From Candidatus Scalinduaceae bacterium (lineage in GTDB: Bacteria > Planctomycetota > Brocadiia > Brocadiales > Scalinduaceae), in assembly GCA_046759445.1 (NCBI GenBank), contig JBHICG010000025.1:1-42829 (forward strand): a stretch of 42,829 nucleotides of DNA, given 5' to 3'. The translations under genes and the position numbers were made by a program. The notes under the pieces were generated by a model, which was not told the DNA's origin, did no database searches, and was given only the letters and a program-made list of their open reading frames with translations. Of the stretch, positions 4,457 through 38,518 are shown in pieces; positions within the stretch are counted from its first letter, which is position 1; each line of letters begins with the position of its first letter.

Positions 4457-5892
4457 TATATTTCAATCCTCTTTCTTTTATAAGTTGCTTTTCCTCCCAG
4501 TTCATCCTTGTTAAGTTTCTTGTTTGCGTGCAAACCATCTAGCAAGAATTCAATTAAAGGCGCAACCATTTGGGGAGTAATTTCTTTACCTATAATATCA
4601 TCTCTCATTTTACTGTTTAATTCCAGTACCATTTTTTTTATTTCTTTGTTATCATTCATAAGCTTATCATACTCCGCTAAAGGCATTTCATCAGACACAT
4701 AAATGGTCTTATCATTAAGTGACTTTATTTCTTCCTGATACATATCAATTTTAAAGAATTGATTGAAAACGTTTTTCACAGCCTTTCTTATGATCTTTTG
4801 AAGGATTGCATCTTCCCGCTCATCATCCATAGTCGTGTCCAGTTCAACCTTGCCTCTTGAAGAAGCAAAAATATGTCTTAAATCGCTTATTCTTGGCACT
4901 GCATCTTTTTCACCCACTCTGATAGCTCGACGTTCCGCATTACTTATTAGTATCTCATAATTGCAGATAGACATCCTTGCGCTTACGCCTGATGATTGGT
5001 TTATTTCCTCACTGTCCCTCGCTATGTGTGAAATCTCCTCAATTATCTCCTTCATAAAACCTGGCACTTTTACTTTAATACCGCAATTTCTATCGATCCA
5101 GGCATTTTGTTCTATAATTTTTATACCATCGTTACGAGTTAATGGATAATGAGTCGTTATTACGGAACCAATCCTGTCTTTAAGTGGGGTAACTATTCTT
5201 CCTCTATTCGTGTAATCTTCGGGGTTAGCTGAAAAGACAATCATCACATCAAGAGGCAGTCTGACAGGATACCCCCTAATCTGTATATCTCTCTCCTGTA
5301 ATACGTTAAACAGGCTTACCTGTATCTTTGGAGAAAGATCTGGCAACTCATTTATGGCAAGAATTCCCCTGTTAGTTCTTGGAATTAGACCAAAGTGCAT
5401 TGTTAATTCACTTGAAAGGTATTTACCTTCCGCAACTTTCACCAGGTCTATCTCTCCAATCAAATCTGCAACCGTAACATCTGGTGTAGCCAGTTTCTCT
5501 CTATATCTGTATCCTTGAGACAACCAGGTTATTTCAGTATAGTCGCCATGCTCATTAATTTTTTCCGTGCATGCCCTGCAAACAGGGTGGAAAGGGTTGT
5601 CATTAATTTCGCAACCCTTAATAATTGGAATCTCATCATCTAACAGGTTTATCAAGTTTCTCAAAATTCTTGTTTTTGCCTGTCCACGAAGACCAAGAAG
5701 TAGAATATCATGTTTGGAAAAAATTGCATTTTCAATCTGAGGTATCACAGTATCATCGTAACCAATAATACCGGGAAAAAATTCCTTCTTTTCTTGTAAT
5801 CCCATTATCAGATTTTTTCTCATCTCATCCTTAATAGATAATACTTTGTGACCAGATTCTCTTAATTCCTTGATTGTTTTTGGCTTTTTCAT
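4456..5892 (-). CDS. Magnesium-chelatase-subunit-I-like AAA+ ATPase
   Basis: Walker A variant GLRGQAKT, Walker B AINELPDL, FSANPEDYTNRG. Start placed at ATG 5892 (MKKPKTI) rather than 5931. Confidence 0.85.
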   Translation of the reverse strand: MKKPKTIKELRESGHKVLSIKDEMRKNLIMGLQEKKEFFPGIIGYDDTVIPQIENAIFSKHDILLLGLRGQAKTRILRNLINLLDDEIPIIKGCEINDNPFHPVCRACTEKINEHGDYTEITWLSQGYRYREKLATPDVTVADLIGEIDLVKVAEGKYLSSELTMHFGLIPRTNRGILAINELPDLSPKIQVSLFNVLQERDIQIRGYPVRLPLDVMIVFSANPEDYTNRGRIVTPLKDRIGSVITTHYPLTRNDGIKIIEQNAWIDRNCGIKVKVPGFMKEIIEEISHIARDSEEINQSSGVSARMSICNYEILISNAERRAIRVGEKDAVPRISDLRHIFASSRGKVELDTTMDDEREDAILQKIIRKAVKNVFNQFFKIDMYQEEIKSLNDKTIYVSDEMPLAEYDKLMNDNKEIKKMVLELNSKMRDDIIGKEITPQMVAPLIEFLLDGLHANKKLNKDELGGKATYKRKRIEI

Positions 5893-6015
5893 ATTACTAT
5901 ATATTCCGGGAAATATTCTGTGCCTTATCACTAAATCTACGAGGAAGGGTTTTTACGTGAGGAAACGGTTTGGTAAGCTTTTCGTTTGGGTTGCTCCATT
6001 TTACCGAGCTATGTG

Positions 6016-23101: not shown

Positions 23102-24556
23102 ATGGCTATCTCCTTAAATGATTTCCCCTCAAACAAATCCCAAATAAAATCGAAATACGACGTAATCATATTAGGTGCTGGTATTGGCGGATTAATCTGC
23201 GGAGCTTTCTTAGCAAAAAGTGAAAAAAAAGTGCTCATTATCGAACAACACAGTATACCCGGAGGTTATTGCACTTCTTTCAAAAGAAAGGGTTTTATTT
23301 TTGATGCAGCAGTCCATCACATCGGTGGATGCGGAAAATGGAGTATAGTTGGTAGAAGTCTTAAGGAATTGGATATAAACATTAATTTTTTAAGACTTGA
23401 CCCTATGGACAGTATAAATTTTCCTTCTTTTTCTATAGATATTCCTGCCGAACTTGACGATTACATAAATTTGCTAAAACAAAATTTCCCATCCGAAAGT
23501 GAAAATTTGTCATCCTTTTTTAAAGAATTTGTCGGGCTTTATAGATCTACAGTTAGAATTGAAGGAAGCAAATTGCTAACTAAATACAAAGACACCACTT
23601 ACAAAGAAATGTTAGATAAGTTTTTTGCTGACGAGAAACTCAAAATGACCCTATCTGCACAGTGGGGTTACATAGGCTCAAAACCTCATGAGGTATCGGC
23701 TATTGGAATGTGCCAAATGCTGGTGAATTACTTAAAAGATGGAGCTTTCTACCCTATGGGAAGTACTCAAAAATTCGCAGACGCAATAGCTCAAAAATTT
23801 ATTGACTATGGTGGTCAAATTATGTTATCCTCTTTGGTAAACAAGATATACACAAAAGATGCACTTGCAAAAGGAGTTATAACAGATAAAGGGAAAGAGT
23901 TTTTTACTGATATTCTTGTCTCTAATATCGACCCAAAACAAACATTTTTCAAATTAATAGAAGAAAAGGAAGTTAATAATTCCTATCTTCACAAGATCCA
24001 GTCAATGAAAGAAAGTATTTCATTTTTTTTATTATATCTGGGTCTTGATGGAGACATTGACTTAAAATCACTAAAAAGAGGTTTCTACCATACATCTGAT
24101 GATATAAATTTTTCCAATGGATGGTTTTATATATCCATTCCTACAGAAATTGATCCAAATCTTGCCCCTGACAAAAAACAAATAATTACTATCGTTGCAT
24201 CATTAAAAAGCAAATATGATGATATAAAAGATTGGGCTGCCTTTAAAGAGAAAATGAAGAAACATACAATAAATTATTTAGAAAATTTTATTCCTAATAT
24301 CCAAAACCATATTGAGGTAATCGAAACCGCAACACCAAAGACGCTTAATCGTTACACACTTAACTCAAAAGGCGCAGCTTATGGTTGGGCTGTTACCGTT
24401 GACCAAACATGGTCTAAAAGGCTCCAGCACACAACACCCCTCAAGAATATTTTTCTGGCAGGGCATTGGACAAACCCAGGACCAGGGATATGTGCGGTTG
24501 TATCTTCCGGTTGGAAGGTTGCTAATCTGATTTTAAGTAGGAGGATAAAAAAATGA
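23102..24556 (+). CDS. Phytoene-desaturase-like FAD-dependent oxidoreductase
   Basis: GAGIGG Rossmann motif, PGGYC, FDAAVH, ATPKT..RYT, GAAYG and LAGHWTNPGPG. Confidence 0.88.
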   Translation: MAISLNDFPSNKSQIKSKYDVIILGAGIGGLICGAFLAKSEKKVLIIEQHSIPGGYCTSFKRKGFIFDAAVHHIGGCGKWSIVGRSLKELDININFLRLDPMDSINFPSFSIDIPAELDDYINLLKQNFPSESENLSSFFKEFVGLYRSTVRIEGSKLLTKYKDTTYKEMLDKFFADEKLKMTLSAQWGYIGSKPHEVSAIGMCQMLVNYLKDGAFYPMGSTQKFADAIAQKFIDYGGQIMLSSLVNKIYTKDALAKGVITDKGKEFFTDILVSNIDPKQTFFKLIEEKEVNNSYLHKIQSMKESISFFLLYLGLDGDIDLKSLKRGFYHTSDDINFSNGWFYISIPTEIDPNLAPDKKQIITIVASLKSKYDDIKDWAAFKEKMKKHTINYLENFIPNIQNHIEVIETATPKTLNRYTLNSKGAAYGWAVTVDQTWSKRLQHTTPLKNIFLAGHWTNPGPGICAVVSSGWKVANLILSRRIKK

Positions 24557-26019
24557 GGAAAATGATGCTCATAAATCCACACCCCCCAGGACGACATGGT
24601 GAGGAAAGTATAACCGTCATTGTACAAATGCCACTTAATCTGGCTTATATTGCTGCCCTTACGCCGGGAGATTGGGAGTTTGACGTAATCGATGAGAATA
24701 TAGAAAATGCTATTGATGAAAATGGTGAAATAACCTTTGAACCTGTTGATTTGGTATGTATTACTTCCGTTACCTATCAAGTAGCAAGCGCCTATAAGAT
24801 AGCTGAAGCATGTAGAAGAAAAGGTATGACCGTAATCCTTGGTGGAATACATGCCTCCGTAATGCCTGATGAAGCATCTAAATATGTTGATGCCGTGTTT
24901 ACGGGAGAAGCAGAAGCACTCTGGCCACAGGTAATAAAAGACTTTGAAAATGGTCAACTCAAAAAGGTTTATAATGGCGGTCTGCCAGCCTTGTCAGAAA
25001 TGAAGCATGTTTTTCCCAACAGAGAACTCATGAAAAAGAAATATAACTATAAGTTTTCCTCTATCGTTACAACAAAGGGTTGTCCAAATTACTGTGATTT
25101 TTGCAGTGTACCAACCTTCCAGGGAAAAAAATTCAGGGAAAGGCCGTATGAAGATGTTCTCGATGAGATGGAGGCAACTGATTACAAGGGATTAATGTTT
25201 GCTGAAGATAATTTCTACGGCCATAGTAAAAACTCCGCTAATAGAGCAAAGGCACTCTGGCGCGGAATGATTGAAAGAGGTATCGAAAAAGACTGGCTTG
25301 GATTTACGGCACTAAATATATCACAGGATTCAGAGGCACTAGACCTTATGGCCAAGAGTGGAAATTTTGGATTTCTCTGCGGAATAGAATCAACAAATGA
25401 GGTTGTCTTAAAGAAGATGAATAAAAGGGTAAATCTAAGGCTTGGCACAGATAGTTATTTTGACTGCATTCAAAAGATTCACGATCACGGTCTTATCGTC
25501 TGGGGATCTATAGTCTTAGGAGCAGATGGAGACGATAAGGATTCTTTTAAAAGGATGACAGAATTTGTATTGGAAAACAACATTGACGTTCTTACTTTTG
25601 GTATCAATTGTCCATTTCCACAAACTGAACTTTATCATAGATTAGATTCAGAAAAGAGGCTTTTCCGTAAGAATTATCCTGAAGACTGGAAATATTACGA
25701 TACCGCACATGTAGTTCACAGATTTGTTGACATGACGTTAGAAAATTTTATTGATGGTATGCAATATATGTATGACCATCTTTATGCCGGTGACAACCTG
25801 AGAAAACGCTTTAGAAAATCAGCTAAAACAATTGGTAGTACAAGACATGGCAAACGCAATGCTATGTTTGCCTTCCGTGTCGGCTCTGACTGGCAACAGG
25901 TCTTTGAACAGGTACTGGAAAATCTACATAAACTATACGATTCTGGAGACTATTATCAAGACTGGTATAAAAGCAGCACAGTATCAACTCATGTAGAAAA
26001 TGGTGTTACCGTAAGTTAA
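24553..26019 (+). CDS. Cobalamin-binding radical SAM protein
   Basis: N-terminal B12-binding-like region (LGGIHAS, GEAE), KGCPNYCDFC, GIES; ATGA overlap with the upstream gene. Confidence 0.9.
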   Translation: MRKMMLINPHPPGRHGEESITVIVQMPLNLAYIAALTPGDWEFDVIDENIENAIDENGEITFEPVDLVCITSVTYQVASAYKIAEACRRKGMTVILGGIHASVMPDEASKYVDAVFTGEAEALWPQVIKDFENGQLKKVYNGGLPALSEMKHVFPNRELMKKKYNYKFSSIVTTKGCPNYCDFCSVPTFQGKKFRERPYEDVLDEMEATDYKGLMFAEDNFYGHSKNSANRAKALWRGMIERGIEKDWLGFTALNISQDSEALDLMAKSGNFGFLCGIESTNEVVLKKMNKRVNLRLGTDSYFDCIQKIHDHGLIVWGSIVLGADGDDKDSFKRMTEFVLENNIDVLTFGINCPFPQTELYHRLDSEKRLFRKNYPEDWKYYDTAHVVHRFVDMTLENFIDGMQYMYDHLYAGDNLRKRFRKSAKTIGSTRHGKRNAMFAFRVGSDWQQVFEQVLENLHKLYDSGDYYQDWYKSSTVSTHVENGVTVS

Positions 26020-27991: not shown

Positions 27992-29593
27992 ATGACAAAA
28001 CACATATTTGTTACAGGTGGTGTTGTTTCTTCCCTCGGAAAGGGTCTTAATGCGGCATCAATCGGCATGCTTCTGGAAAGCCACGGCCTCAGCATAAGTT
28101 TACAGAAGTTTGATCCTTATGTTAACGTTGACCCAGGCACAATGAGCCCATTTGAACATGGCGAGATCTATGTTACTGACGATGGCGCTGAGACAGATCT
28201 TGATTTGGGTCATTACGAAAGGTTTACAAATGCAGTTACGAATAAGAATTGCAATTTTACTACAGGCTCAATCTATTATTCAGTAATAACAAAGGAACGT
28301 CAGGGAAAATACCTGGGTAAGACGATACAAGTAATCCCTCATATAACAAATGAGATTAAAGACTGTATAGGGAAGTTGGCAGGTCCAGGTACAGATGTGG
28401 TAATTTCTGAGATAGGAGGAATAGTAGGAGATATTGAAAGTCAGCCGTTTCTGGAAGCCATTAGACAATTTGGGCAAGAAGTAGGCAGAGAAAACGTCCT
28501 ATATATACATTTAACACTTGTACCTTATCTCCGGGCTGCAGATGAGATAAAAACAAAACCTACACAACACAGTGTTGGCATGTTACGCCAGGCGGGCATA
28601 GAACCTGACATTTTAATATGCAGAACGGAGAAACCGCTTGCCAGCGACATAAAAGAAAAACTATCCCTCTTCTGTAATGTAGACAAAGAATCAATTATAG
28701 AAGAAATGGACGTGAAACCTTACCTATATGAGATTCCTTTGCTGCTTGTCGAACAAGGACTTGACAAAATAATCTTAAGAAAACTTCAACTAAACACAAA
28801 TGGAAATACCCTTACCAAATGGACCAAGATGTTGGACACACTAAAGAATCCTCAAAATGTCACCGAAATTGCCATCGTTGGGAAATATATTGGACTCCAA
28901 TCTGCATACGAATCGATTTACGAGGCATTAATACACGGAGGCATTAGTGGTTCCGCAAGGGTAATAGAAAGGAGAATAGAATCAGAAGATATAGAGAAGG
29001 ATGGCGCAGAAAAACATCTTCAAGGATGCAAGGGAATCTTAATACCAGGTGGATTCGGGGAAAGAGGTATTGAAGGAAAGATAGAAGCGGTAAGATACGC
29101 AAGGGAGAATAAAATACCATACCTGGGATTGTGTCTGGGAATGCACTGTGCAACTATAGAATTTGCGAGAAATGTATGTAATCTGAAAGATGCAAACACT
29201 ACTGAGTTAGACATTAATACACCACACCCGGTTATATGTTTATTAGAGGAACAGAAGAATATTGTGAGTAAGGGCGCTACTATGAGGTTGGGTGCACAAC
29301 AATGCAAGTTAGAGACAAATACAATTGCTTATAAAAGTTACGGTCAGGAGTTAATTTCCGAACGACACAGGCACAGATATGAGTTTAATAACAAATACAA
29401 GGATATGTTTGCATCTGAGGGGTTTATTTTCAGCGGGTTCACGCTGGATGATGAATTAGTAGAAATAATCGAGCTGAAAGACCATCCGTGGTTTGTGGCA
29501 GTACAATTTCACCCTGAGTTTAAGTCCAAACCAACTAATCCACATCCGCTTTTCAAAGAATTTATTAAAGCTTCATTGGAAATCAATAAATGA
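27992..29593 (+). CDS. pyrG: CTP synthase
   Basis: [39 protein letters not shown]. Confidence 0.98.
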
Positions 29594-29635
29594 TATGTTG
29601 AAAAATATTTGATAAATTATGATGGAGGTTTAAAA

Positions 29636-30010
29636 ATGGGAGAAGAGGAAAAACTAGAACAGTCCGATTCGGGAAAAACTGTGGATGATGAATGGAAAAA
29701 AAAGGTTCAGGAAGAAAAAGAAAAGGTTAGCGAGAAAAAGCCATCACAAAAAACAAAGCAACAAATCCCCGAAGCAAGCTTCAGCTTATTTATATACAGC
29801 CTTGCCACACAAACATTAATAAACTTAGGGGAAGTGGAAAACCCATTTAATAAGAAAAAAGAACAGGATTTAGATCAGGCAAAATTCACAATAGATACTA
29901 TACAGATAATAAAAGACAAAACAAAAGGAAACCTTAGCGATGATGAGACTAAATATTTGGACTCTGTGCTCTATGATTTGAGCATGAAATATGTTGAAAA
30001 GAGTAAGTAA
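29636..30010 (+). CDS. DUF1844-family protein
   Basis: VDDEWK, ASFSLFI..L, LGEVENP, AKFTID, KTKGNL; GGAGG before ATG 29636. Confidence 0.78.
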   Translation: MGEEEKLEQSDSGKTVDDEWKKKVQEEKEKVSEKKPSQKTKQQIPEASFSLFIYSLATQTLINLGEVENPFNKKKEQDLDQAKFTIDTIQIIKDKTKGNLSDDETKYLDSVLYDLSMKYVEKSK

Positions 30011-30079
30011 TCTTTTCTATAGAATTCCTTTTCAATAAAATGCTGATTATCCTTTAAAAAACACGGCAACCAGGCGTTG

Positions 30080-30304
30080 TCATAATATATTACGTGCTTC
30101 TTTTAGAAAATCTTCCTGAATTATTTTCAAAAGATTTCTTGCTAGTTCGATATGACCCTTTTCTTCATTACTGATTGATTGTAAGGTATCAATGATGATT
30201 TTATCATCAAGTTCTTTGATACAATCATCGTATAATGACTTGGCATCTTCTTCAAACTTTAGAACCCTTTGGAATATACTGGAAAGTGATTCACTAGAAT
30301 ACAT
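30080..30304 (-). CDS. Small ferritin/rubrerythrin-like half-bundle protein
   Basis: Two helices with FEEDAKSLY and ISNEEKGH (E...ExxH pattern). Confidence 0.7.
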   Translation of the reverse strand: MYSSESLSSIFQRVLKFEEDAKSLYDDCIKELDDKIIIDTLQSISNEEKGHIELARNLLKIIQEDFLKEARNIL

Positions 30305-30536
30305 TTTTATTACTCTCTTTTACATCCTGTATTAATTTTTCTATTACATTTTTGTGTCTTTGTGTATCATCCCTTAATTTCGTTATTATTACCTTTATTT
30401 TCTCTTTTTTTTCTTCACTTAACCACTCGTAATATTTAAGTGAGTTAATAGTATAATCATAGAAGTGATTGTTTGCTTCTTCTTCGCATTCCAGAGCGTT
30501 AAGTAGCGTTTTGATAAGGATTTTTTTCTTAATCAT
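30294..30536 (-). CDS. Small ferritin-like half-bundle protein
   Basis: ALECEEEANNHFY and LRDDTQRH; overlaps the downstream paralogue by 11 nt. Confidence 0.62.
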   Translation of the reverse strand: MIKKKILIKTLLNALECEEEANNHFYDYTINSLKYYEWLSEEKKEKIKVIITKLRDDTQRHKNVIEKLIQDVKESNKNVF

Positions 30537-30586
30537 ATTTCATTACTATAACAAACAATCATTAAAGAAAACAAGTTTAAAAAAGA

Positions 30587-32131
30587 ATGAGTTATCCACT
30601 ATTTGTTAAGAGAGATATAGATGGTTTTTTTGGTCTTGCCATCGATAATCTTATCCAATTAATACTCATTGTGAGTTTTTGCAAGACGCTTTGCGGTATG
30701 CCTGACGAACTTGTCTTCGGTGTAATACTTCCCGGATCAGCTATTTCAATACTCCTGGGAAACCTTTTCTACTCATGGCAGGCAAGAAAGCTCGCAATCA
30801 AAACAAAAAGAAATGACGTAACAGCATTACCATACGGCATAAACACTGTTAGTCTTTTTGCCTTCATCTTCTTTATAATGCTTCCCGTTTATGAGGATAC
30901 AAAAGACCCATACCTGGCATGGAAGATTGGAATGATTGCCTGTTTCCTTAGCGGAGTGATAGAGATGTTGGGGGCGTTGATTGGGGAAAGCCTGAGGCGG
31001 ATTACTCCAAGGGCTGCCTTGCTGTCCACACTTGCGGGAATTGCAATTACATTTATTTCTATGGATTTTGCATTTAAGATATTTGAAAAACCCATAATAG
31101 CCCTGTTCCCGCTTGCGTTTATCCTTGTCCAGTATTTTTCAAAAGTAAGATTTCCATTGGGACTACCAGGAGGCCTAATTGCCATTGTCGTTGGCACAGG
31201 ATTGGCCTGGCTGCTGGGTTATATGGATGGTGGAAGCACTGTGACTGAAAATGGAGTCTTTCATTTTTCTCCACCGCACTTTAGCGGGGCAAGTATGATA
31301 GACATAATCCAGAGCAAATATATGCTTCAATATATATCTATCATTATTCCCATGGGAGTGTTCAATGTTGTGGGCTCTCTGCAAAATATTGAGAGTGCCG
31401 AGGCGGCAGGAGATAAGTATAACACATTTTCATCACTATTAACTAATGGAATAGGTTCAGTTGTAGCATCAATATTTGGCAGTTGCTTCCCCACAACCAT
31501 ATATATAGGCCATCCCGGCTGGAAGGCAATAGGCGCCAGGGGCGGATATTCAATCCTGAACGGAATCTTTATAACAACCATATGTTTGACTGGATTTATA
31601 ACCGTTATCCTCAAGGTTGTGCCACTTGAAGCGGGAATAGGGATTTTATTATGGATAGGGATCGTAATAGTTGCACAGGCATTCCAGGAAACACCTAAAC
31701 ATCATGCTCCTGCCGTCGCCGTGGGTCTCTTCCCCGCAATTGCGGCATGGGGGTTGCTGATGGTTGAAAGTACTCTCAGGTCATCCGGGACTACCCTCTT
31801 TATCCTTGGCAAGGATGCATTTGCCAACAATCTGGCCATTCATGGAATGATATCACTCGAAAGAGGATTTATATTCACGTCCATGATACTAGCATCAATT
31901 TCAGTCTTTCTGATTGAAAAGAAATTCCTGAGAGCATGTGCCTGGTCGCTTGGAGCAGCTCTGCTCTCTTACATAGGCGTTATCCATGCATACGCGCTCA
32001 CACCTAATGGCGTGGTTAGTGTATTTGGATTTGGGATGGCAAACGATTTCTCGATAGGTTATTGCTCCTTTGCCATACTATTCATTGCCATGTATTTTTA
32101 TACACGTGGGAATGAGAAGATGTGTCCCTAA
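30587..32131 (+). CDS. NCS2/AzgA-like nucleobase permease
   Basis: Polytopic membrane protein with DIDGFFGL, TALPYGIN, PRAALL, QNIESAEAAGD and YIGHPGWK. Confidence 0.82.
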   Translation: MSYPLFVKRDIDGFFGLAIDNLIQLILIVSFCKTLCGMPDELVFGVILPGSAISILLGNLFYSWQARKLAIKTKRNDVTALPYGINTVSLFAFIFFIMLPVYEDTKDPYLAWKIGMIACFLSGVIEMLGALIGESLRRITPRAALLSTLAGIAITFISMDFAFKIFEKPIIALFPLAFILVQYFSKVRFPLGLPGGLIAIVVGTGLAWLLGYMDGGSTVTENGVFHFSPPHFSGASMIDIIQSKYMLQYISIIIPMGVFNVVGSLQNIESAEAAGDKYNTFSSLLTNGIGSVVASIFGSCFPTTIYIGHPGWKAIGARGGYSILNGIFITTICLTGFITVILKVVPLEAGIGILLWIGIVIVAQAFQETPKHHAPAVAVGLFPAIAAWGLLMVESTLRSSGTTLFILGKDAFANNLAIHGMISLERGFIFTSMILASISVFLIEKKFLRACAWSLGAALLSYIGVIHAYALTPNGVVSVFGFGMANDFSIGYCSFAILFIAMYFYTRGNEKMCP

Positions 32132-32144
32132 CCAAGGGTAGGCA

Positions 32145-32236
32145 TAATCCCTGTTTAACGGTCGCTGTCCCTAGTTTCTGTCGTCCCTAGTTTCTGTCTA
32201 ATCCCTGTTTAACGGTCGCTGTCCCTAGTTTCTGTC
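32145..32236. repeat. Exact 38-bp direct repeat with an intervening 16-bp partial copy
   Basis: taatccctgtttaacggtcgctgtccctagtttctgtc at 32145-32182 and 32199-32236; gtccctagtttctgtc at 32183-32198. Confidence 0.92.
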
Positions 32237-32412
32237 AATCCTGTAGCTTTAAGATATTGAGCAGCTATTGCTTCCGGTGATGAGATTGAGCAAGGGGTTG
32301 CAGTCTAATTCGGATACAAAGATTTGATTGATGTATTAAAGGTGAAAAAATCATCATAAAAGGGTTGTATCCCTTTCAGCCCTTTTCGAAATTATTCAGA
32401 GAGTGATCCTAG

Positions 32413-33093
32413 ATGGTAAGGGCATGCGATATTATTAATAAAAAATATAATAAACTAGAAAGTAAATACGGCTCCACACGCTCAACACTCTTTGGGAGAT
32501 TTTACGAGAAGATAATATCCAAATGGTTAGAAGAAAGAGAAAAGTATACTCTAGAACGATGGCCAAATAATAAAGTAGTGCGTAAGCCACGGATTTATTG
32601 GAACAATATCTTCTTAGACAATTTTAACTTTAGTAAAGATTGGTTTGTAAGAGATGAAGTTGAGGAATCTCTGAATTTTTTGAAGAACAAAAAAAGTCAT
32701 TGCACACTCGACGGTACTTTTAAGAAAAATGACAAGTTCTACATATGGGAAGCAAAAAATTGGCCTTTGTATCCAGAAAAAGGACCAAAACATCAAATAA
32801 GGAAATATCTTACTAACAATCCTTGGATATTTGACAAGAAGTTTGACATTGGCGGTAAAAATTACGAAATATCAGGATTTTTATTTTCTTTCTGGAATAT
32901 GGAACTAAAGGATAAAACAGAAATCGAAGAAGGAGTAAACCAAATTATAGGAGAAAATAAATTTAAAATTATTCTAACTCAAGCGATATTAGATGATTGT
33001 TTAGGTAAACAATATGACTGGTATCGTGAAATAATAAAGGAAGAGAAAGCAAATATTGATGATTTTTTTGATCAGCTTCTTAGTAGAAAATAG
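32413..33093 (+). CDS. Hypothetical PD-(D/E)xK restriction-endonuclease-like protein
   Basis: GRFYEKII helix, then TLDGTF and YIWEAKNW, matching the E...D...ExK catalytic layout. Confidence 0.62.
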   Translation: MVRACDIINKKYNKLESKYGSTRSTLFGRFYEKIISKWLEEREKYTLERWPNNKVVRKPRIYWNNIFLDNFNFSKDWFVRDEVEESLNFLKNKKSHCTLDGTFKKNDKFYIWEAKNWPLYPEKGPKHQIRKYLTNNPWIFDKKFDIGGKNYEISGFLFSFWNMELKDKTEIEEGVNQIIGENKFKIILTQAILDDCLGKQYDWYREIIKEEKANIDDFFDQLLSRK

Positions 33094-33144
33094 TCCTTTC
33101 AAATAGGCATTATCACCTAATAGAGTGAACCTTCTTTAAAAAAC

Positions 33145-34017
33145 ATGAATAGTGTCAAATGGTTACAGTTTTTTGAGCGAATTAGCTGTTTTTACAGGCA
33201 AATGCTAATGCTCCCATTATGGAGTAAATATCCACATCATGTCACAGACGGATGGGACTCTTTAGCTATATTTTTAGAGGGCTATGCTTTTGAAAGACAA
33301 GGAAGACGACCGGATTATTCTCATGTAGCGATAGATGCTTTGATTGATTGCAAAAAGCAAAATAATGGTAACCTGACTACAGGCATAGTTAATTATGTTT
33401 GGCAGAGCTTTAAGGATAAACTTAGTAATAAAAGTTTAAATTATCAAAATAATCCTCTGTGTCCAAGAGGAAAGGAATATTCAAAACGTTACAAACAATC
33501 TATAAAGCATTGTCACACTCAACAACCTTCCTTAATAGAGATGTTCTTGGAAAAAATTATGCCACAGGAATTAACCTTAACATCATATTTTCAAAATCGA
33601 ATTATAGAAGATAATGAATCTCGACCTTCATACGATTTATTGAAATCTGTTCAAGGAATAGGGAAAAAGGTTTCCTCTTTTTATCTTAGAGACTTAACAG
33701 ATATGATGGATAGCATCACTCTTGAAAAGTTAAAAGATAGGCAACTGTTACAACCAATAGATATTTGGGTTGAAAGAACAGTGAAAATTTTAGCTGAAAG
33801 TAAGAATATGAAAGAAGATGAAATAGCCAAATGGATAGTCGATAATTCAATACCACATATAAATCCTGAACGGGTTAATATGGGGATTTGGTTTTTCTGT
33901 TCTTCAATAGCAGGTAGTGAGTATAGACTTAATAACGCTTTAATCAGTTTGAATAATGCTCAAACCTTAGTAAATCTTTTTATGAATAGAATTAAAAATG
34001 TGTGTAAAGATTGCTAA
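33145..34017 (+). CDS. Hypothetical HhH-GPD DNA glycosylase/lyase-like protein
   Basis: Helix-hairpin-helix LKSVQGIGKKVSSFYLRD followed by QPIDIWVER (conserved Asp). Confidence 0.65.
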   Translation: MNSVKWLQFFERISCFYRQMLMLPLWSKYPHHVTDGWDSLAIFLEGYAFERQGRRPDYSHVAIDALIDCKKQNNGNLTTGIVNYVWQSFKDKLSNKSLNYQNNPLCPRGKEYSKRYKQSIKHCHTQQPSLIEMFLEKIMPQELTLTSYFQNRIIEDNESRPSYDLLKSVQGIGKKVSSFYLRDLTDMMDSITLEKLKDRQLLQPIDIWVERTVKILAESKNMKEDEIAKWIVDNSIPHINPERVNMGIWFFCSSIAGSEYRLNNALISLNNAQTLVNLFMNRIKNVCKDC

Positions 34018-34052
34018 ACTATAGGGAAAGTTCCATCAACGCTATACATATA

Positions 34053-34196
34053 AGGACAGACACTTTTTATTGCTTATTCTGGGTCAGGAGAGCAGGAGAG
34101 GGGTCAAGTCCTTCTTTGACTACATGAAAAATATAGGGTTAGGTCTTGCAATATCACAAATAAACATAATCACATCTTTTTACCTTTGCCCCCTTT
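34053..34196. repeat. Cluster of degenerate GGGGTCA/GGGACA-type short repeats
   Basis: aggacagacactttt, gggtcagg, ggggtcaagtccttctttgac, gggttaggtcttgcaatatcaca and ttgcccccttt within about 145 nt. Confidence 0.5.
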
Positions 34197-34560
34197 ACTT
34201 CGGCAAGGAACAAATAAGGACCGTTTAAAAATTTATGAGGAAATACAATGGTAATTTGAAGTAGCTAAGAAAGAATGAAAGAAATTGTTTCGCAAGAAAT
34301 TATAAAGAATAACCTGCATGCCTGTAGATCATCGAGAAATTCTTTTTGAAAATGCGAAATTACAATCTTTTGTACAATCAGGAAATTCGCCAAATGTTAT
34401 ATAGTTGTTGATATTTGTAGTATGTTTCTACATAATTACTTACATTGATTTGATTTGTGTTAAATAATTGATGCGAGATTGCAAAAAAAATCCATCTTTA
34501 TCAAAAGAATAAAAAAAAAGTACATATCGAGTATACATTATACTTTAAGGAATTATAAAT

Positions 34561-34890
34561 ATGAAACTTTCTATAAAAGAAAGAGCGATAGTTGAAGAAT
34601 TCAGACAAATAATAAACGACAAATTCCCTGATGAAATTATAGATGTATTGGTATTTGGCTCTAAAGCAAGGGGAGACGCAACGAAAGAATCAGATATTGA
34701 TGTTTTAGTAATTACGTCATCAAATAATTGGAAAAAAGGTGATGAAATTAGAGAGATCGGTTATGGACTAGACGATGAAATAGATTATAAATTATCAATT
34801 CAAGTTATTTCAAAATCACACCTTGATTATCTAAGGCAAAATAATTTTCAGTTTGTTGCAAATATAGAAAATGAAGGTATTATTGTATGA
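34561..34890 (+). CDS. Minimal nucleotidyltransferase (MNT) antitoxin-like protein
   Basis: FGSKARGD..ESDIDVLV (GS..DxD motif). Confidence 0.9.
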   Translation: MKLSIKERAIVEEFRQIINDKFPDEIIDVLVFGSKARGDATKESDIDVLVITSSNNWKKGDEIREIGYGLDDEIDYKLSIQVISKSHLDYLRQNNFQFVANIENEGIIV

Positions 34891-35291
34891 AACATATCTA
34901 TGAGGAAGAGATAAGACTAGAGATAGAGAGAAGTAAAAAAGCATTGGATGCCGCTAAAAAGCTTTTTGAAGAAGAACTGTTTGAAGACGCAATTTCTCGT
35001 TCTTATTATGCGGTTTTACATGCAGCAAAGGCGGCTTTGCTTGGAGATCACATAATAGTTGATTCACATGAAGCAGTGAAAAGGCTCTTTGGTATGCATT
35101 TGGTCAAGACAGGAAAAGTTGATGCTAAATTCTCTAAGATTCTTCGAGAAGAGCAAGATGAACGTTTTTTGGCTGATTATGATGTATCATTTTCACCTGA
35201 AAAAGAACGCGTAGAAAAGAGAATTAAAGACGCAGTGTGTTTTTTTGATGCAATGAGTTCATACCTTAAACAAAAGGATATTGATTTTTAA
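34887..35291 (+). CDS. HEPN domain protein
   Basis: AISRSYYAVLHAAKA, SHEAV and ERFLADY; ATGA overlap with the MNT gene. Confidence 0.88.
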   Translation: MKHIYEEEIRLEIERSKKALDAAKKLFEEELFEDAISRSYYAVLHAAKAALLGDHIIVDSHEAVKRLFGMHLVKTGKVDAKFSKILREEQDERFLADYDVSFSPEKERVEKRIKDAVCFFDAMSSYLKQKDIDF

Positions 35292-35402
35292 CAATAATAA
35301 CGATTCGTTCCAAAGCTGAACGAAATACAGTCAGGCGTAATCCTATTGTTGACGAATGATTCAATCCGCCAGGGTTATCTTTGCCATTTTTTCCAACGGA
35401 TT

Positions 35403-36659
35403 TTACTGACGTATCTGCCCATTACCGTGGACGATGTATTTGTATGATGTGAGCTCGTTCAGACCCATTGGACCACGGGCATGGAGTTTGTCTGTACTGA
35501 TGCCAATTTCGGCTCCCATTCCGAATTCATAACCATCGGTGAAGCGAGTGGATGCATTTACGTACACGGCTGCTGAATCAACCTCATCTGTGAATTTCTT
35601 CGCATTAGGTTCGTTCTCGGTTATTATGGCATCCGAATGTGAGGAACCGTAAACTGTGATATGATCAATGGCCTCTTCAATAGAAGATACAATTTTTACT
35701 GAAAGTATCTTTTCCAGATACTCTGTTGACCAATCTTCTTCGGTGGCCGGTTTTATGTCAGGGAGAATCTTACGGCTCTTTTCACACCCCCTCAACTCGA
35801 CCCCAGAATCTGATATACTCCTGGAAATATCTGAAAGGAATGTTTTTGATATCTTTTCATGCACCAGCATCGTCTCCATTGCATTACACGTACCCGGTCT
35901 CTGAATCTTTGCATTGAGGCATACGTCCTTTGCCATGCTCAGATTGGCAAATTCATCTACATATATATGGCATATACCCTTAAAATGTTTAATTACGGGA
36001 ATGGTTGAGTTCTCAACCACGTTTCGTATCAAACCCTCTCCACCTCGAGGAATCACCAAATCTACATATTCATCTGCCTTAAGAAGGCAGTCAACGGCCT
36101 CTCGATCAGTAGTTTCGATTACCTGAATGGCTTTTTTGTCAAGACCAACCTTTTCAAGTGCCAAACTCATTTGCTCGTAAATGGCAATATTGGAATTTAT
36201 TGATTCCTTACCACCCCGAAGTATTGTTGCATTGCCAGTCTTCAGGCAGAGAGAAGCAGCATCTGCTGTAACATTTGGTCTGGATTCATAGATAATTATT
36301 ATAACGCCTATGGGCACTCTGACTTTTTGAATTTTTAAGCCATTTGGACGGACAATCTCTTCCAACATCTCACCAACAGGGTCTTTAAGGTTTATGACCT
36401 CTCTTATACCTTTTGCCATATCCTCTATTCGCGAATCCGTTAACCTCAACCTGTCAATCATGGCAGAAGATGAGCCAGCTTTTTCAGCGGCCTTTATGTC
36501 TTTTTCATTTTCTACCATTATGCTTGTCTTACCGTTCAAGAGATTGTGTGCCATTTGTTCAAGAGCGGCATTTTTTACTGAACTACTGGCAGTGGCCATT
36601 ATGTTTGACGCTTTTTTGGCATCACTTACGACTTTATCTACGTAATCCTTAACGTTCAT
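35403..36659 (-). CDS. proA: Gamma-glutamyl phosphate reductase
   Basis: PIGVIIIIYESRPNVT, IPRGGEGLI, CNAMET, NASTRFTDG, KLHARGPMG. Confidence 0.97.
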   Translation of the reverse strand: MNVKDYVDKVVSDAKKASNIMATASSSVKNAALEQMAHNLLNGKTSIMVENEKDIKAAEKAGSSSAMIDRLRLTDSRIEDMAKGIREVINLKDPVGEMLEEIVRPNGLKIQKVRVPIGVIIIIYESRPNVTADAASLCLKTGNATILRGGKESINSNIAIYEQMSLALEKVGLDKKAIQVIETTDREAVDCLLKADEYVDLVIPRGGEGLIRNVVENSTIPVIKHFKGICHIYVDEFANLSMAKDVCLNAKIQRPGTCNAMETMLVHEKISKTFLSDISRSISDSGVELRGCEKSRKILPDIKPATEEDWSTEYLEKILSVKIVSSIEEAIDHITVYGSSHSDAIITENEPNAKKFTDEVDSAAVYVNASTRFTDGYEFGMGAEIGISTDKLHARGPMGLNELTSYKYIVHGNGQIRQ

Positions 36660-37080
36660 ATCTATATGAAATTAACAAAAATATTGATGCTATTAATATC
36701 AAACCTGAAGGTATCTGCCATGGGAAAGGGCCTTCAAATAAAAATGAATCTATTTTACTCAACATATTTGTTTTTTCGAACTCATCATTATCAGGTTCTG
36801 AAATTGAAAATTTGTATTTTTTATAAGCAACTTCTCCTGGATTGATATACCCAAATCTCTCTCTTGCTTCTCTCTCGATTTGTATCGGATCCTTAACGAG
36901 GGCTTCTTTCTCCTTTTTGAGTTCTAAGTTTTTTTTCTTTAAAAAAGTAATCTTTTCGGCAAGATACCTTTGTTTTGCTTCAAGGACTCTTCTTTCCTCG
37001 CGTTTCTGTGTAACAATAGCAGAAAAGATGATTACGATTGATACTACTATTGAAAATGTGAAAAGGAAACGTCTTAACAT
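36649..37080 (-). CDS. ftsB: FtsB/DivIC-like septum formation initiator
   Basis: N-terminal TM, coiled coil, DP..IEREARERFGYINPGE; lies downstream of eno. Confidence 0.75.
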   Translation of the reverse strand: MLRRFLFTFSIVVSIVIIFSAIVTQKREERRVLEAKQRYLAEKITFLKKKNLELKKEKEALVKDPIQIEREARERFGYINPGEVAYKKYKFSISEPDNDEFEKTNMLSKIDSFLFEGPFPWQIPSGLILIASIFLLISYRYER

Positions 37081-37202
37081 ATAAATTAGCTCCTTTCAGT
37101 CACTAATTTATTACGATTTTACTTTGCAAAACGATTATATAAAAAAACTAATTCGGCATTGAGTATCAAGTATCTAGCATCAAGCTCTTATCAAGGATCG
37201 AA

Positions 37203-38518
<1,316 letters not shown>

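Follow-up and report, generated by a model that had tools for sequence, protein, structure and literature searches.

Positions 1 to 42,829 of contig JBHICG010000025.1 (assembly GCA_046759445.1), from a Candidatus Scalinduaceae bacterium, an uncultivated anammox planctomycete, were analysed; this whole stretch of 42,829 nt is referred to as the window. Two adjacent plus-strand genes, designated here gene 1 and gene 2, had been read in an initial annotation as one candidate undescribed defence module: a PD-(D/E)xK nuclease and a glycosylase belonging to the helix-hairpin-helix (HhH) superfamily HhH-GPD would together recognise modified phage bases, excise them and cleave the DNA. The two open reading frames (ORFs) are present as described there, co-oriented and 51 nt apart, and lie within an AT-rich island with the following features:

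32116-35400, no strand assigned: strain-specific AT-rich island of 3.3 kb, with four relatives showing no match between the flanks; G+C content 0.31-0.35
32146-32237, plus strand: two copies of a repeat unit of about 37 nt, a short dispersed repeat, at the left edge of the island
32413-33093, plus strand: gene 1, solitary PD-(D/E)xK nuclease of 226 aa, unnamed family
33094-33144, plus strand: spacer of 51 nt without a predicted plus-strand terminator, spanned by an RNA-library contig (32995-33328)
33145-34017, plus strand: gene 2, divergent HhH-GPD glycosylase/apurinic-apyrimidinic (AP)-lyase-like protein of 290 aa, unnamed family
34081-34320, plus strand: decayed cassette, consisting of a 150-nt leader and the first codons of an ORF6N-type gene, with 89% identity to C34:461-610 of the same genome
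34561-34890, plus strand: MNT-type nucleotidyltransferase, antitoxin-like (NTP_transf_2, PF01909, E 7.8e-13; PADLOC PDC-S09, E 3.9e-20)
34887-35291, plus strand: HEPN-domain protein, toxin-like (PF05168, E 1.5e-16), overlapping the MNT gene by 4 nt

The G+C content of the 1-kb bins from 32001 to 35000 was 0.353, 0.318 and 0.306, against 0.440 and 0.404 in the neighbouring bins on either side, and the MNT/HEPN pair begins 540 nt downstream of gene 2; the AT-rich island and the adjoining pair noted initially were thus both confirmed. The island is bounded by a conserved membrane-protein gene (ending at 32131) and by a conserved minus-strand gene (35403-36659). Four relatives match the window at 27992-32115 and 35401-38483 and have nothing in between; at the island site, G003 carries an OmpA-family gene and G004 carries 11.8 kb of unrelated genes. 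In two genomes of the same genus the island flanks are not adjacent. Gene 1 and gene 2 were each found in one of the 41 genomes searched, which was their own; of the 40 relatives, two share the genus and a further 22 the family. The island is foreign.

The island is also a mosaic, in which the decayed ORF6N cassette separates gene 2 from the MNT-HEPN pair. The 150 nt at 34081-34230 match C34:461-610 of the same genome at 89%, a segment located there upstream of an intact ORF6N/Rha-type gene which adjoins a Shedu SduA_C gene; the window retains just the first codons of the ORF6N-type gene.

Gene 2 gave no match at E<=1 in Pfam, NCBIfam or PADLOC. The fold calls for both genes rest on VIA-align. 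For the gene-2 model (predicted local distance difference test score, pLDDT, 95.8) the top 22 structural matches all belonged to the HhH-GPD superfamily, with endonuclease III (EndoIII), Ogg2, MutY, AlkA and AGOG as structural neighbours, and were followed by a drop in score. Helical models often give middling Z scores; the argument for the fold is this unbroken run of a single superfamily and the subsequent drop. The model has the two-domain, all-helical architecture of these glycosylases. A Foldseek search of the PDB with the same model gave nothing at E<=0.001 (best 0.037), the top rows being Ogg enzymes, and the gene-2 profile reached only E 0.34 and 0.45 at best against PDB sequences. In PDB entry 4ejy (Ogg), a match weak on its own (E 0.45), the hairpin Lys (GVGPKVAD) and the Asp align with K175 and D206 of gene 2.

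Among 46 members of the gene-2 family, sub-threshold matches to PF22175 (Ogg-HhH) were obtained in 10 (best E 7.4e-4), other families recurred in two members at most and PF00730 gave no match at E<=0.1; the curated Pfam cut-off was reached by none in this sequence-model test. The KxxSxxLRD stretch of gene 2 presumably resembles an Ogg2 motif, the weak PF22175 matches being the sole test of this likeness.

The active site was examined in a family alignment of 242 rows, comprising the query and 241 of 255 listed homologues; homologues shorter than 230 or longer than 360 aa, 14 in all, were excluded, and the shorter gene call of the window's gene 2 makes up one of the rows kept. The G-[IV]-G hairpin of the HhH motif (G171 in all 242 rows, G173 in 201) is followed by the Lys of the bifunctional subclass, at the second position past the hairpin glycine (K175 of GIGKK, 241 rows), and by R182 (237), D183 (240), P204 (241), the downstream catalytic Asp (D206 of QPIDIW, 239) and W208 (240). 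The lyase-type Lys and the catalytic Asp on which the initial annotation had based its assignment, and the HhH-GPD fold with them, therefore held. We take the position of K175 to be that of EndoIII K120 and OGG1 K249. The gap between Lys and Asp is about 18-19 residues in EndoIII and OGG1, whereas in gene 2 it is about 30.

The statement that gene 2 has no Fe-S motif had to be refined. The canonical C-terminal four-Cys [4Fe-4S] loop of EndoIII and MutY is not present in gene 2, and none of the Cys columns is conserved family-wide (the highest, C252, in 104 of the 242 rows). Five cysteines (C15, C69, C252, C287 and C290) co-vary, with all five found in 35 rows and none in 87; the set includes a C-terminal CxxC whose spacing differs from that of the EndoIII Fe-S loop, and may represent a metal site specific to a subfamily. 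Judged from its sequence and its predicted structure, gene 2 is a divergent and apparently active HhH-GPD enzyme.

A word-indexed search collected 157 proteins of the gene-2 family, and an exhaustive search 1081 cluster representatives at E<=0.001, including 237 at E<=1e-30. The homologues are nearly all stand-alone proteins of 260-310 aa which share the family-specific N-terminal motifs YAFERQG and NNP. About 1,000 sequence clusters, mostly known from metagenomes, are spread across many bacterial and archaeal phyla, and no Pfam model describes them. In one database gene call, gene 2 begins at residue 22; the 290-aa start was preferred because the homologues conserve the first 21 residues. No relative was found in viral contigs, and plasmids yielded one distant match, a 426-aa hypothetical protein of Methanocaldococcus jannaschii pDSM2661_1 (L142, record 23295-24575; 23% identical across 74% of the query, with E 4e-6).

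Elsewhere in its own genome there are three canonical HhH-GPD (PF00730) genes, and for this reason gene 2 is not the housekeeping EndoIII, MutY or Ogg of this organism. Together with the patchy spread and the AT-rich mobile context, these three ordinary genes point to an accessory role.

Gene 1 likewise had no match at E<=1 in Pfam, Mrr_cat included, NCBIfam or PADLOC. Its 48 homologues in a collection of 5.8 billion proteins are all unnamed or "hypothetical". The E..D..ExK layout seen initially was borne out: E32 (GRFYEK), D100 (TLDG; consensus CTPDG) and E113/K115 (WEAK) are invariant in the 42 aligned sequences, and in the AlphaFold model (pLDDT 88.6) they are located on helix 21-43 and on the adjacent strands 96-105 and 108-114. 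This is the PD-(D/E)xK arrangement, with an acidic residue on the first helix, the Asp on strand 2 and the (D/E)xK on strand 3, in an alpha/beta core of the restriction-endonuclease type. The best VIA-align matches were Mrr-type AF1548 and XisH. Foldseek against the PDB gave nothing at E<=0.001 (best 0.033), the rows below threshold being McrC, Avs4, BstEII, EcoO109I, EcoRI, MunI and similar nucleases, and no PDB sequence matched the gene-1 profile at E<=10. Gene 1 is therefore structurally closest to the solitary, Type IV-like PD-(D/E)xK nucleases of the Mrr/AF1548 type; it differs from them in the missing Mrr_cat match, and no separate DNA-binding, sensor or recognition domain is evident in its 226-aa model. 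One relative was found in viral contigs, on the same contig as L089, and none among plasmids. We conclude that gene 1 encodes a small nuclease of the PD-(D/E)xK type, whose E..D..ExK site is intact and whose family has no profile model.

The partnership of the two genes was assessed through their homologues, with family profiles that recovered both genes of the window, at 3.1e-125 and 6.7e-103. No gene-1 homologue was present at any of 49 gene-2 loci from species-representative genomes (up to 6 kb on each side). Conversely, 71 metagenome loci holding a gene-1 homologue contained no gene-2 homologue; the room downstream is 950 nt or more at 35 of them, and such room exists on one or other side at 51. 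Gene 1 was also not found anywhere in the 40 whole genomes holding gene 2, with a query that does detect the gene 1 of its own genome. When neighbours were clustered by BLAST, a given family recurred at three or four loci at most, for gene 1 and gene 2 alike, and the shared ones came from closely related contigs.

No fused form was seen among the proteins listed. The longer gene-2 members (P0101, P0103, P0175, P0185 and P0196) showed no nuclease domain, as judged by Pfam for the two scanned and by hhalign to gene 1 for P0101. Comparison of the gene-1 profile by hhalign with the 494-aa P0101, which has an extra N-terminal part, and with the PDDEXK_5 neighbour at locus L001 gave probabilities of 0.1-0.2%; at the sequence level, neither protein gives a sign of a hidden fusion or of hidden homology with gene 1.

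The two families thus never co-occur in the loci or genomes searched, the very outcome that the initial annotation had named as speaking against its proposal, and a two-gene module is for this reason not supported. On balance, genes 1 and 2 are probably independent, horizontally acquired, stand-alone accessory genes which adjoin each other in a defence-type island of mosaic make-up, and not a two-component system; in this strain they are probably co-transcribed, simply through being neighbours.

Several observations weigh against this reading. The 51-nt gap contains no predicted plus-strand terminator, so that co-expression and cooperation in this genome are possible, and a DNase-treated metatranscriptome library yielded a 334-nt contig (32995-33328) that runs from the end of gene 1 across the spacer into the start of gene 2. 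At the two closest genomic gene-2 loci, L001 and L002 (50-53% identity), a PD-(D/E)xK gene of another family (PF11645) lies directly upstream; a loose pairing of the glycosylase with any nuclease is possible. Many of the other neighbours on the upstream side of gene 2 are without a Pfam match, and its closest homologues (53-60% identity) sit on short metagenome contigs, outside the context counts. The END nucleases, in which a nuclease is fused to an EndoIII/Ogg-like HhH domain, lie in defence islands and target hypermodified phage DNA, according to Yee et al. (PMC12191111); by analogy, they suggest that a nuclease and an EndoIII-like protein can work as one unit.

The defence-type setting, too, calls for caution. 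Defence or mobile genes lie within two ORFs at 17 of the 49 gene-2 loci, about a third, and at 22 of the 60 gene-1 loci with a scannable neighbour, in agreement with the kind of neighbourhood expected initially; the classes are our own classification of Pfam and PADLOC matches, two ORFs on each side, with no background rate for comparison. All other neighbours, for gene 1 as for gene 2, are unnamed or housekeeping genes, and housekeeping genes are numerous among them.

The bridging RNA contig is not proof of a single transcript, DNA carry-over being possible. The RNA contigs cover the stretch partially; run X3 has no cover at 33329-34091 and is uninformative there, and runs X4 and X5, which represent small shares of the stretch, were not used for naming a habitat. 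The bridging contig differs from the window at two bases in the spacer, and therefore places the same arrangement in a near-identical population sampled by another study. The shared arrangement is not independent evolutionary support.

Among the defence and mobile neighbours of gene 2 were MNT/HEPN genes, methylases of Type I, II and III restriction-modification (R-M) systems, AIPR, Cas4-like and Cmr3 genes, as well as Nmad3, PIN, HNH, integrase, transposase and recombinase genes. A PADLOC scan of 64 gene-2 neighbours identified R-M methylases, Cas4, Cmr3, PDC-M05 and a few others, most neighbours being unnamed. For gene 1, after the near-duplicate loci L057, L063 and L069 had been left out of the scan, the neighbours included SduA_C, RES, SIR2, TIR, AIPR (two loci), Mrr_cat (three loci) and GmrSD_N genes, and further OLD, Type III R-M, PLD, HepT, ORF6N, terminase and transposase genes. 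AIPR was the only named neighbour family common to both genes: at L040 the AIPR gene (4704-5948) lies directly upstream of the gene-2 homologue with a 46-nt overlap, and AIPR genes are also found upstream of the gene-1 homologues of L068/L069 (L068:2805-4565) and L073 (1203-2987).

Some single loci are worth recording. In L033 (3290-11225) a gene-2 homologue of 30% identity lies between the genes of a Type III methylase and a ResIII helicase-nuclease, with an AlbA_2/Schlafen-type gene also present. In L049 (5575-11085) a large Type I/IIG-like methylase gene and a RadC gene have a distant gene-2-like ORF on either side, the two ORFs scoring equally; this may be a duplicated or composite element. 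At the distant gene-1 locus L110 a canonical HhH-GPD fragment lies two ORFs away on the opposite strand. A DeoC-like aldolase, found downstream of gene 2 in L003, L006 and L020, was rejected as a partner, as it belongs to a housekeeping aromatic/folate cluster of three Planctomycetota. A Mig/Vsr-like role was also rejected as a rule for gene 2: adjacent methylases occur only in L017, L023, L033 and L049, which are too few.

The closest parallel to gene 2 was found in the Dag proteins. Getz et al. (10.1101/2025.10.29.685425) describe these as stand-alone HhH-superfamily glycosylases which had escaped sequence searches, are encoded on mobile DNA rich in AT and confer protection from phages whose DNA contains 7-deazaguanine; 19 of them, from 24 structural clusters, were validated, namely Dag1, Dag2 and 17 further Vibrio integron proteins, and Dag1 is bifunctional, with essential Lys, Asp and Trp residues. 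Gene 2, compared with this account by description only, is likewise a single stand-alone gene with a sequence-cryptic HhH-superfamily fold and a Lys/Asp pair with a nearby Trp, is predicted to be bifunctional, and lies in an AT-rich, mobile and defence-rich context with a patchy distribution and with housekeeping glycosylases elsewhere in the genome. The differences lie in the Lys-Asp spacing (31 residues in gene 2, against K118/D184 in Dag1), in the host, which is an anammox planctomycete, and in the location of gene 2 outside an integron. Feature by feature, the analogy with the Dag description fits. Since stand-alone defence glycosylases of the HhH superfamily had already been described, the initial designation "undescribed" was too strong for the kind of function, although both families are uncovered by the profile libraries.

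Gene 2 would flip a non-canonical base into its pocket and use D206 to cleave the N-glycosidic bond, after which a Schiff base formed by K175 would nick the strand by beta-elimination. Its most likely role would be that of the Dag defence glycosylases, the destruction of phage DNA carrying modified bases. A bifunctional glycosylase/lyase breaks the strand itself, and therefore needs no separate nuclease. Base excision with AP-lyase activity is also used for restriction by the R.PabI-type glycosylases (PMC10273834), which are paired with a methyltransferase; the R.PabI fold differs from the HhH-GPD fold of gene 2, and HhH is not mentioned in that paper.

The possibility was considered that gene 2 has no part in defence and is an accessory base-excision repair enzyme for lesions of endogenous or environmental origin, oxidised or alkylated bases for example, with gene 1 as an unrelated neighbour. 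Its structural neighbours EndoIII, Ogg2, MutY, AlkA and AGOG are repair enzymes, and the weak Ogg-HhH matches, the aromatic/folate surroundings in the three Planctomycetota and the lack of homologues in viral contigs all agree with this; at 32 of the 49 gene-2 loci the two ORFs on each side include no defence or mobile gene, and, according to PMC11754123, HhH-GPD repair families are still being newly described. Gene 2 shares the G-[IV]-G-x-K hairpin, and the Asp downstream of it, with the Ogg2, AGOG and EndoIII structures (PDB 3n0u, 3knt, 1xqp, 7olb, 8a5g and 2abk). The gene-2 family differs from these enzymes in falling below the Pfam threshold, in its own YAFERQG and NNP motifs, in having no canonical Fe-S loop and in being accessory and not core. 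Against a repair role stand the presence of gene 2 in a single one of the 41 related genomes, its position in a foreign AT-rich island, the three canonical HhH-GPD genes already present and the defence or mobile genes beside about a third of the homologue loci, and we regard it as rather unlikely.

Cooperation of genes 1 and 2 in this genome, as an unfused and active counterpart of the END nucleases in which the glycosylase would excise modified phage bases and the nuclease would cut at or near these sites, appears quite improbable. The spacer, the bridging contig and the upstream nuclease genes of L001 and L002 speak for it, as do the END proteins, which combine a nuclease with an EndoIII/Ogg-like HhH protein. 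A further precedent comes from Brig1, Brig2 and Brig3 (10.64898/2026.02.25.707755), single anti-phage glycosylases with a uracil-DNA glycosylase (UDG) fold which excise modified bases and thereby disable the phage DNA: Brig3 works with an operon partner, BapA, which widens its range. BapA, as characterised in that source, is a glucosyl hydrolase, whereas the neighbour of gene 2 is a nuclease.

The zero co-occurrence (0/49, 0/71 and 0/40) speaks against cooperation, as do the hhalign comparisons, which showed no likeness to gene 1 in the upstream nuclease of L001 or in the N-terminal extension of P0101; gene 2 also keeps its own lyase Lys and needs no nuclease. As END nucleases are portrayed by Yee et al., each is one fused protein with a PLD-type nuclease, and the EndoIII domain has lost its catalytic residues; genes 1 and 2 are separate, with no co-occurrence elsewhere, gene 1 is of the PD-(D/E)xK type and K175 and D206 of gene 2 are near-invariant. 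The literature search found END and Dag, but no unfused pair of an HhH-GPD glycosylase and a nuclease. To the more elaborate proposal, that the gene-2 family is a new lineage of active HhH-GPD restriction glycosylase/lyases directed at phage DNA with modified bases, captured here into one transcript with a solitary PD-(D/E)xK nuclease which would finish the job, we give little credence.

Gene 1 could also be the endonuclease of a Type II R-M system whose methyltransferase is located elsewhere in the genome or has been lost. This would agree with the ESM Atlas, where its language-model and structure neighbours are unnamed clusters, one "Restriction endonuclease" cluster and the HinfI/HpyAIV, MunI and Mrr_cat clusters, and with the VIA-align rows for BstEII, FokI, PaqCI and HindIII; the best structural matches are nevertheless of the Mrr and XisH kind. 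No DNA methyltransferase gene was found among the four island ORFs and the three upstream ORFs scanned, so that the lack of an adjacent one, noted initially, was upheld, and gene 1 does not have the adjacent cognate methyltransferase by which a Type II system is recognised. A DNA methylase lies within two ORFs at only 5 of the 60 gene-1 loci (L064, L070, L075, L077 and L102), each time beside another nuclease or restriction subunit, and gene 1 is therefore taken to have no cognate methylase. We consider a Type II origin highly doubtful. The solitary, methylase-free state fits Type IV restriction enzymes, and gene 1 would most likely act alone as a restriction-type nuclease that is modification-dependent or otherwise kept off the host DNA.

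That gene 2 does not act on DNA at all and uses the HhH-GPD fold for hydrolysing nucleosides or nucleotides or for modifying bases, as do the queuine-salvage enzyme DUF2419 and gp46 of phage PaMx11, is very improbable.

If gene 2, as a stand-alone accessory gene, is a defence enzyme, glycosylase immunity of the Dag type would reach past Vibrio integrons into anammox bacteria and numerous uncultivated phyla, and phages with modified DNA would be implied to be common in those habitats. Neither family has a Pfam, NCBIfam or PADLOC profile; both are therefore invisible to current defence-finding pipelines, for which models would be useful. Adjacency in a single genome is insufficient here to define a system, and the pair should not be catalogued as a two-gene module.

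The repeat at the left edge of the island starts, as read from the sequence, directly past the stop codon of the upstream membrane-protein gene. Short copies of it (24-40 nt, 81-100% identity) occur at seven to eight other places in the same genome and in genomes of the same genus; it may be a repetitive extragenic palindromic (REP)-like or miniature inverted-repeat transposable element (MITE)-like sequence, or an insertion-site motif. The membrane-protein gene itself (30587-32131) codes for a multi-pass protein of 514 aa without a Pfam match at E<=1, and is conserved in four relatives at 74-84% DNA identity.

At the other end of the island, two runs yielded RNA-library contigs across the MNT-HEPN junction and the HEPN gene (34794-35330). 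Several of them differ from the window at 1-3 bases, which suggests related strains in another study.

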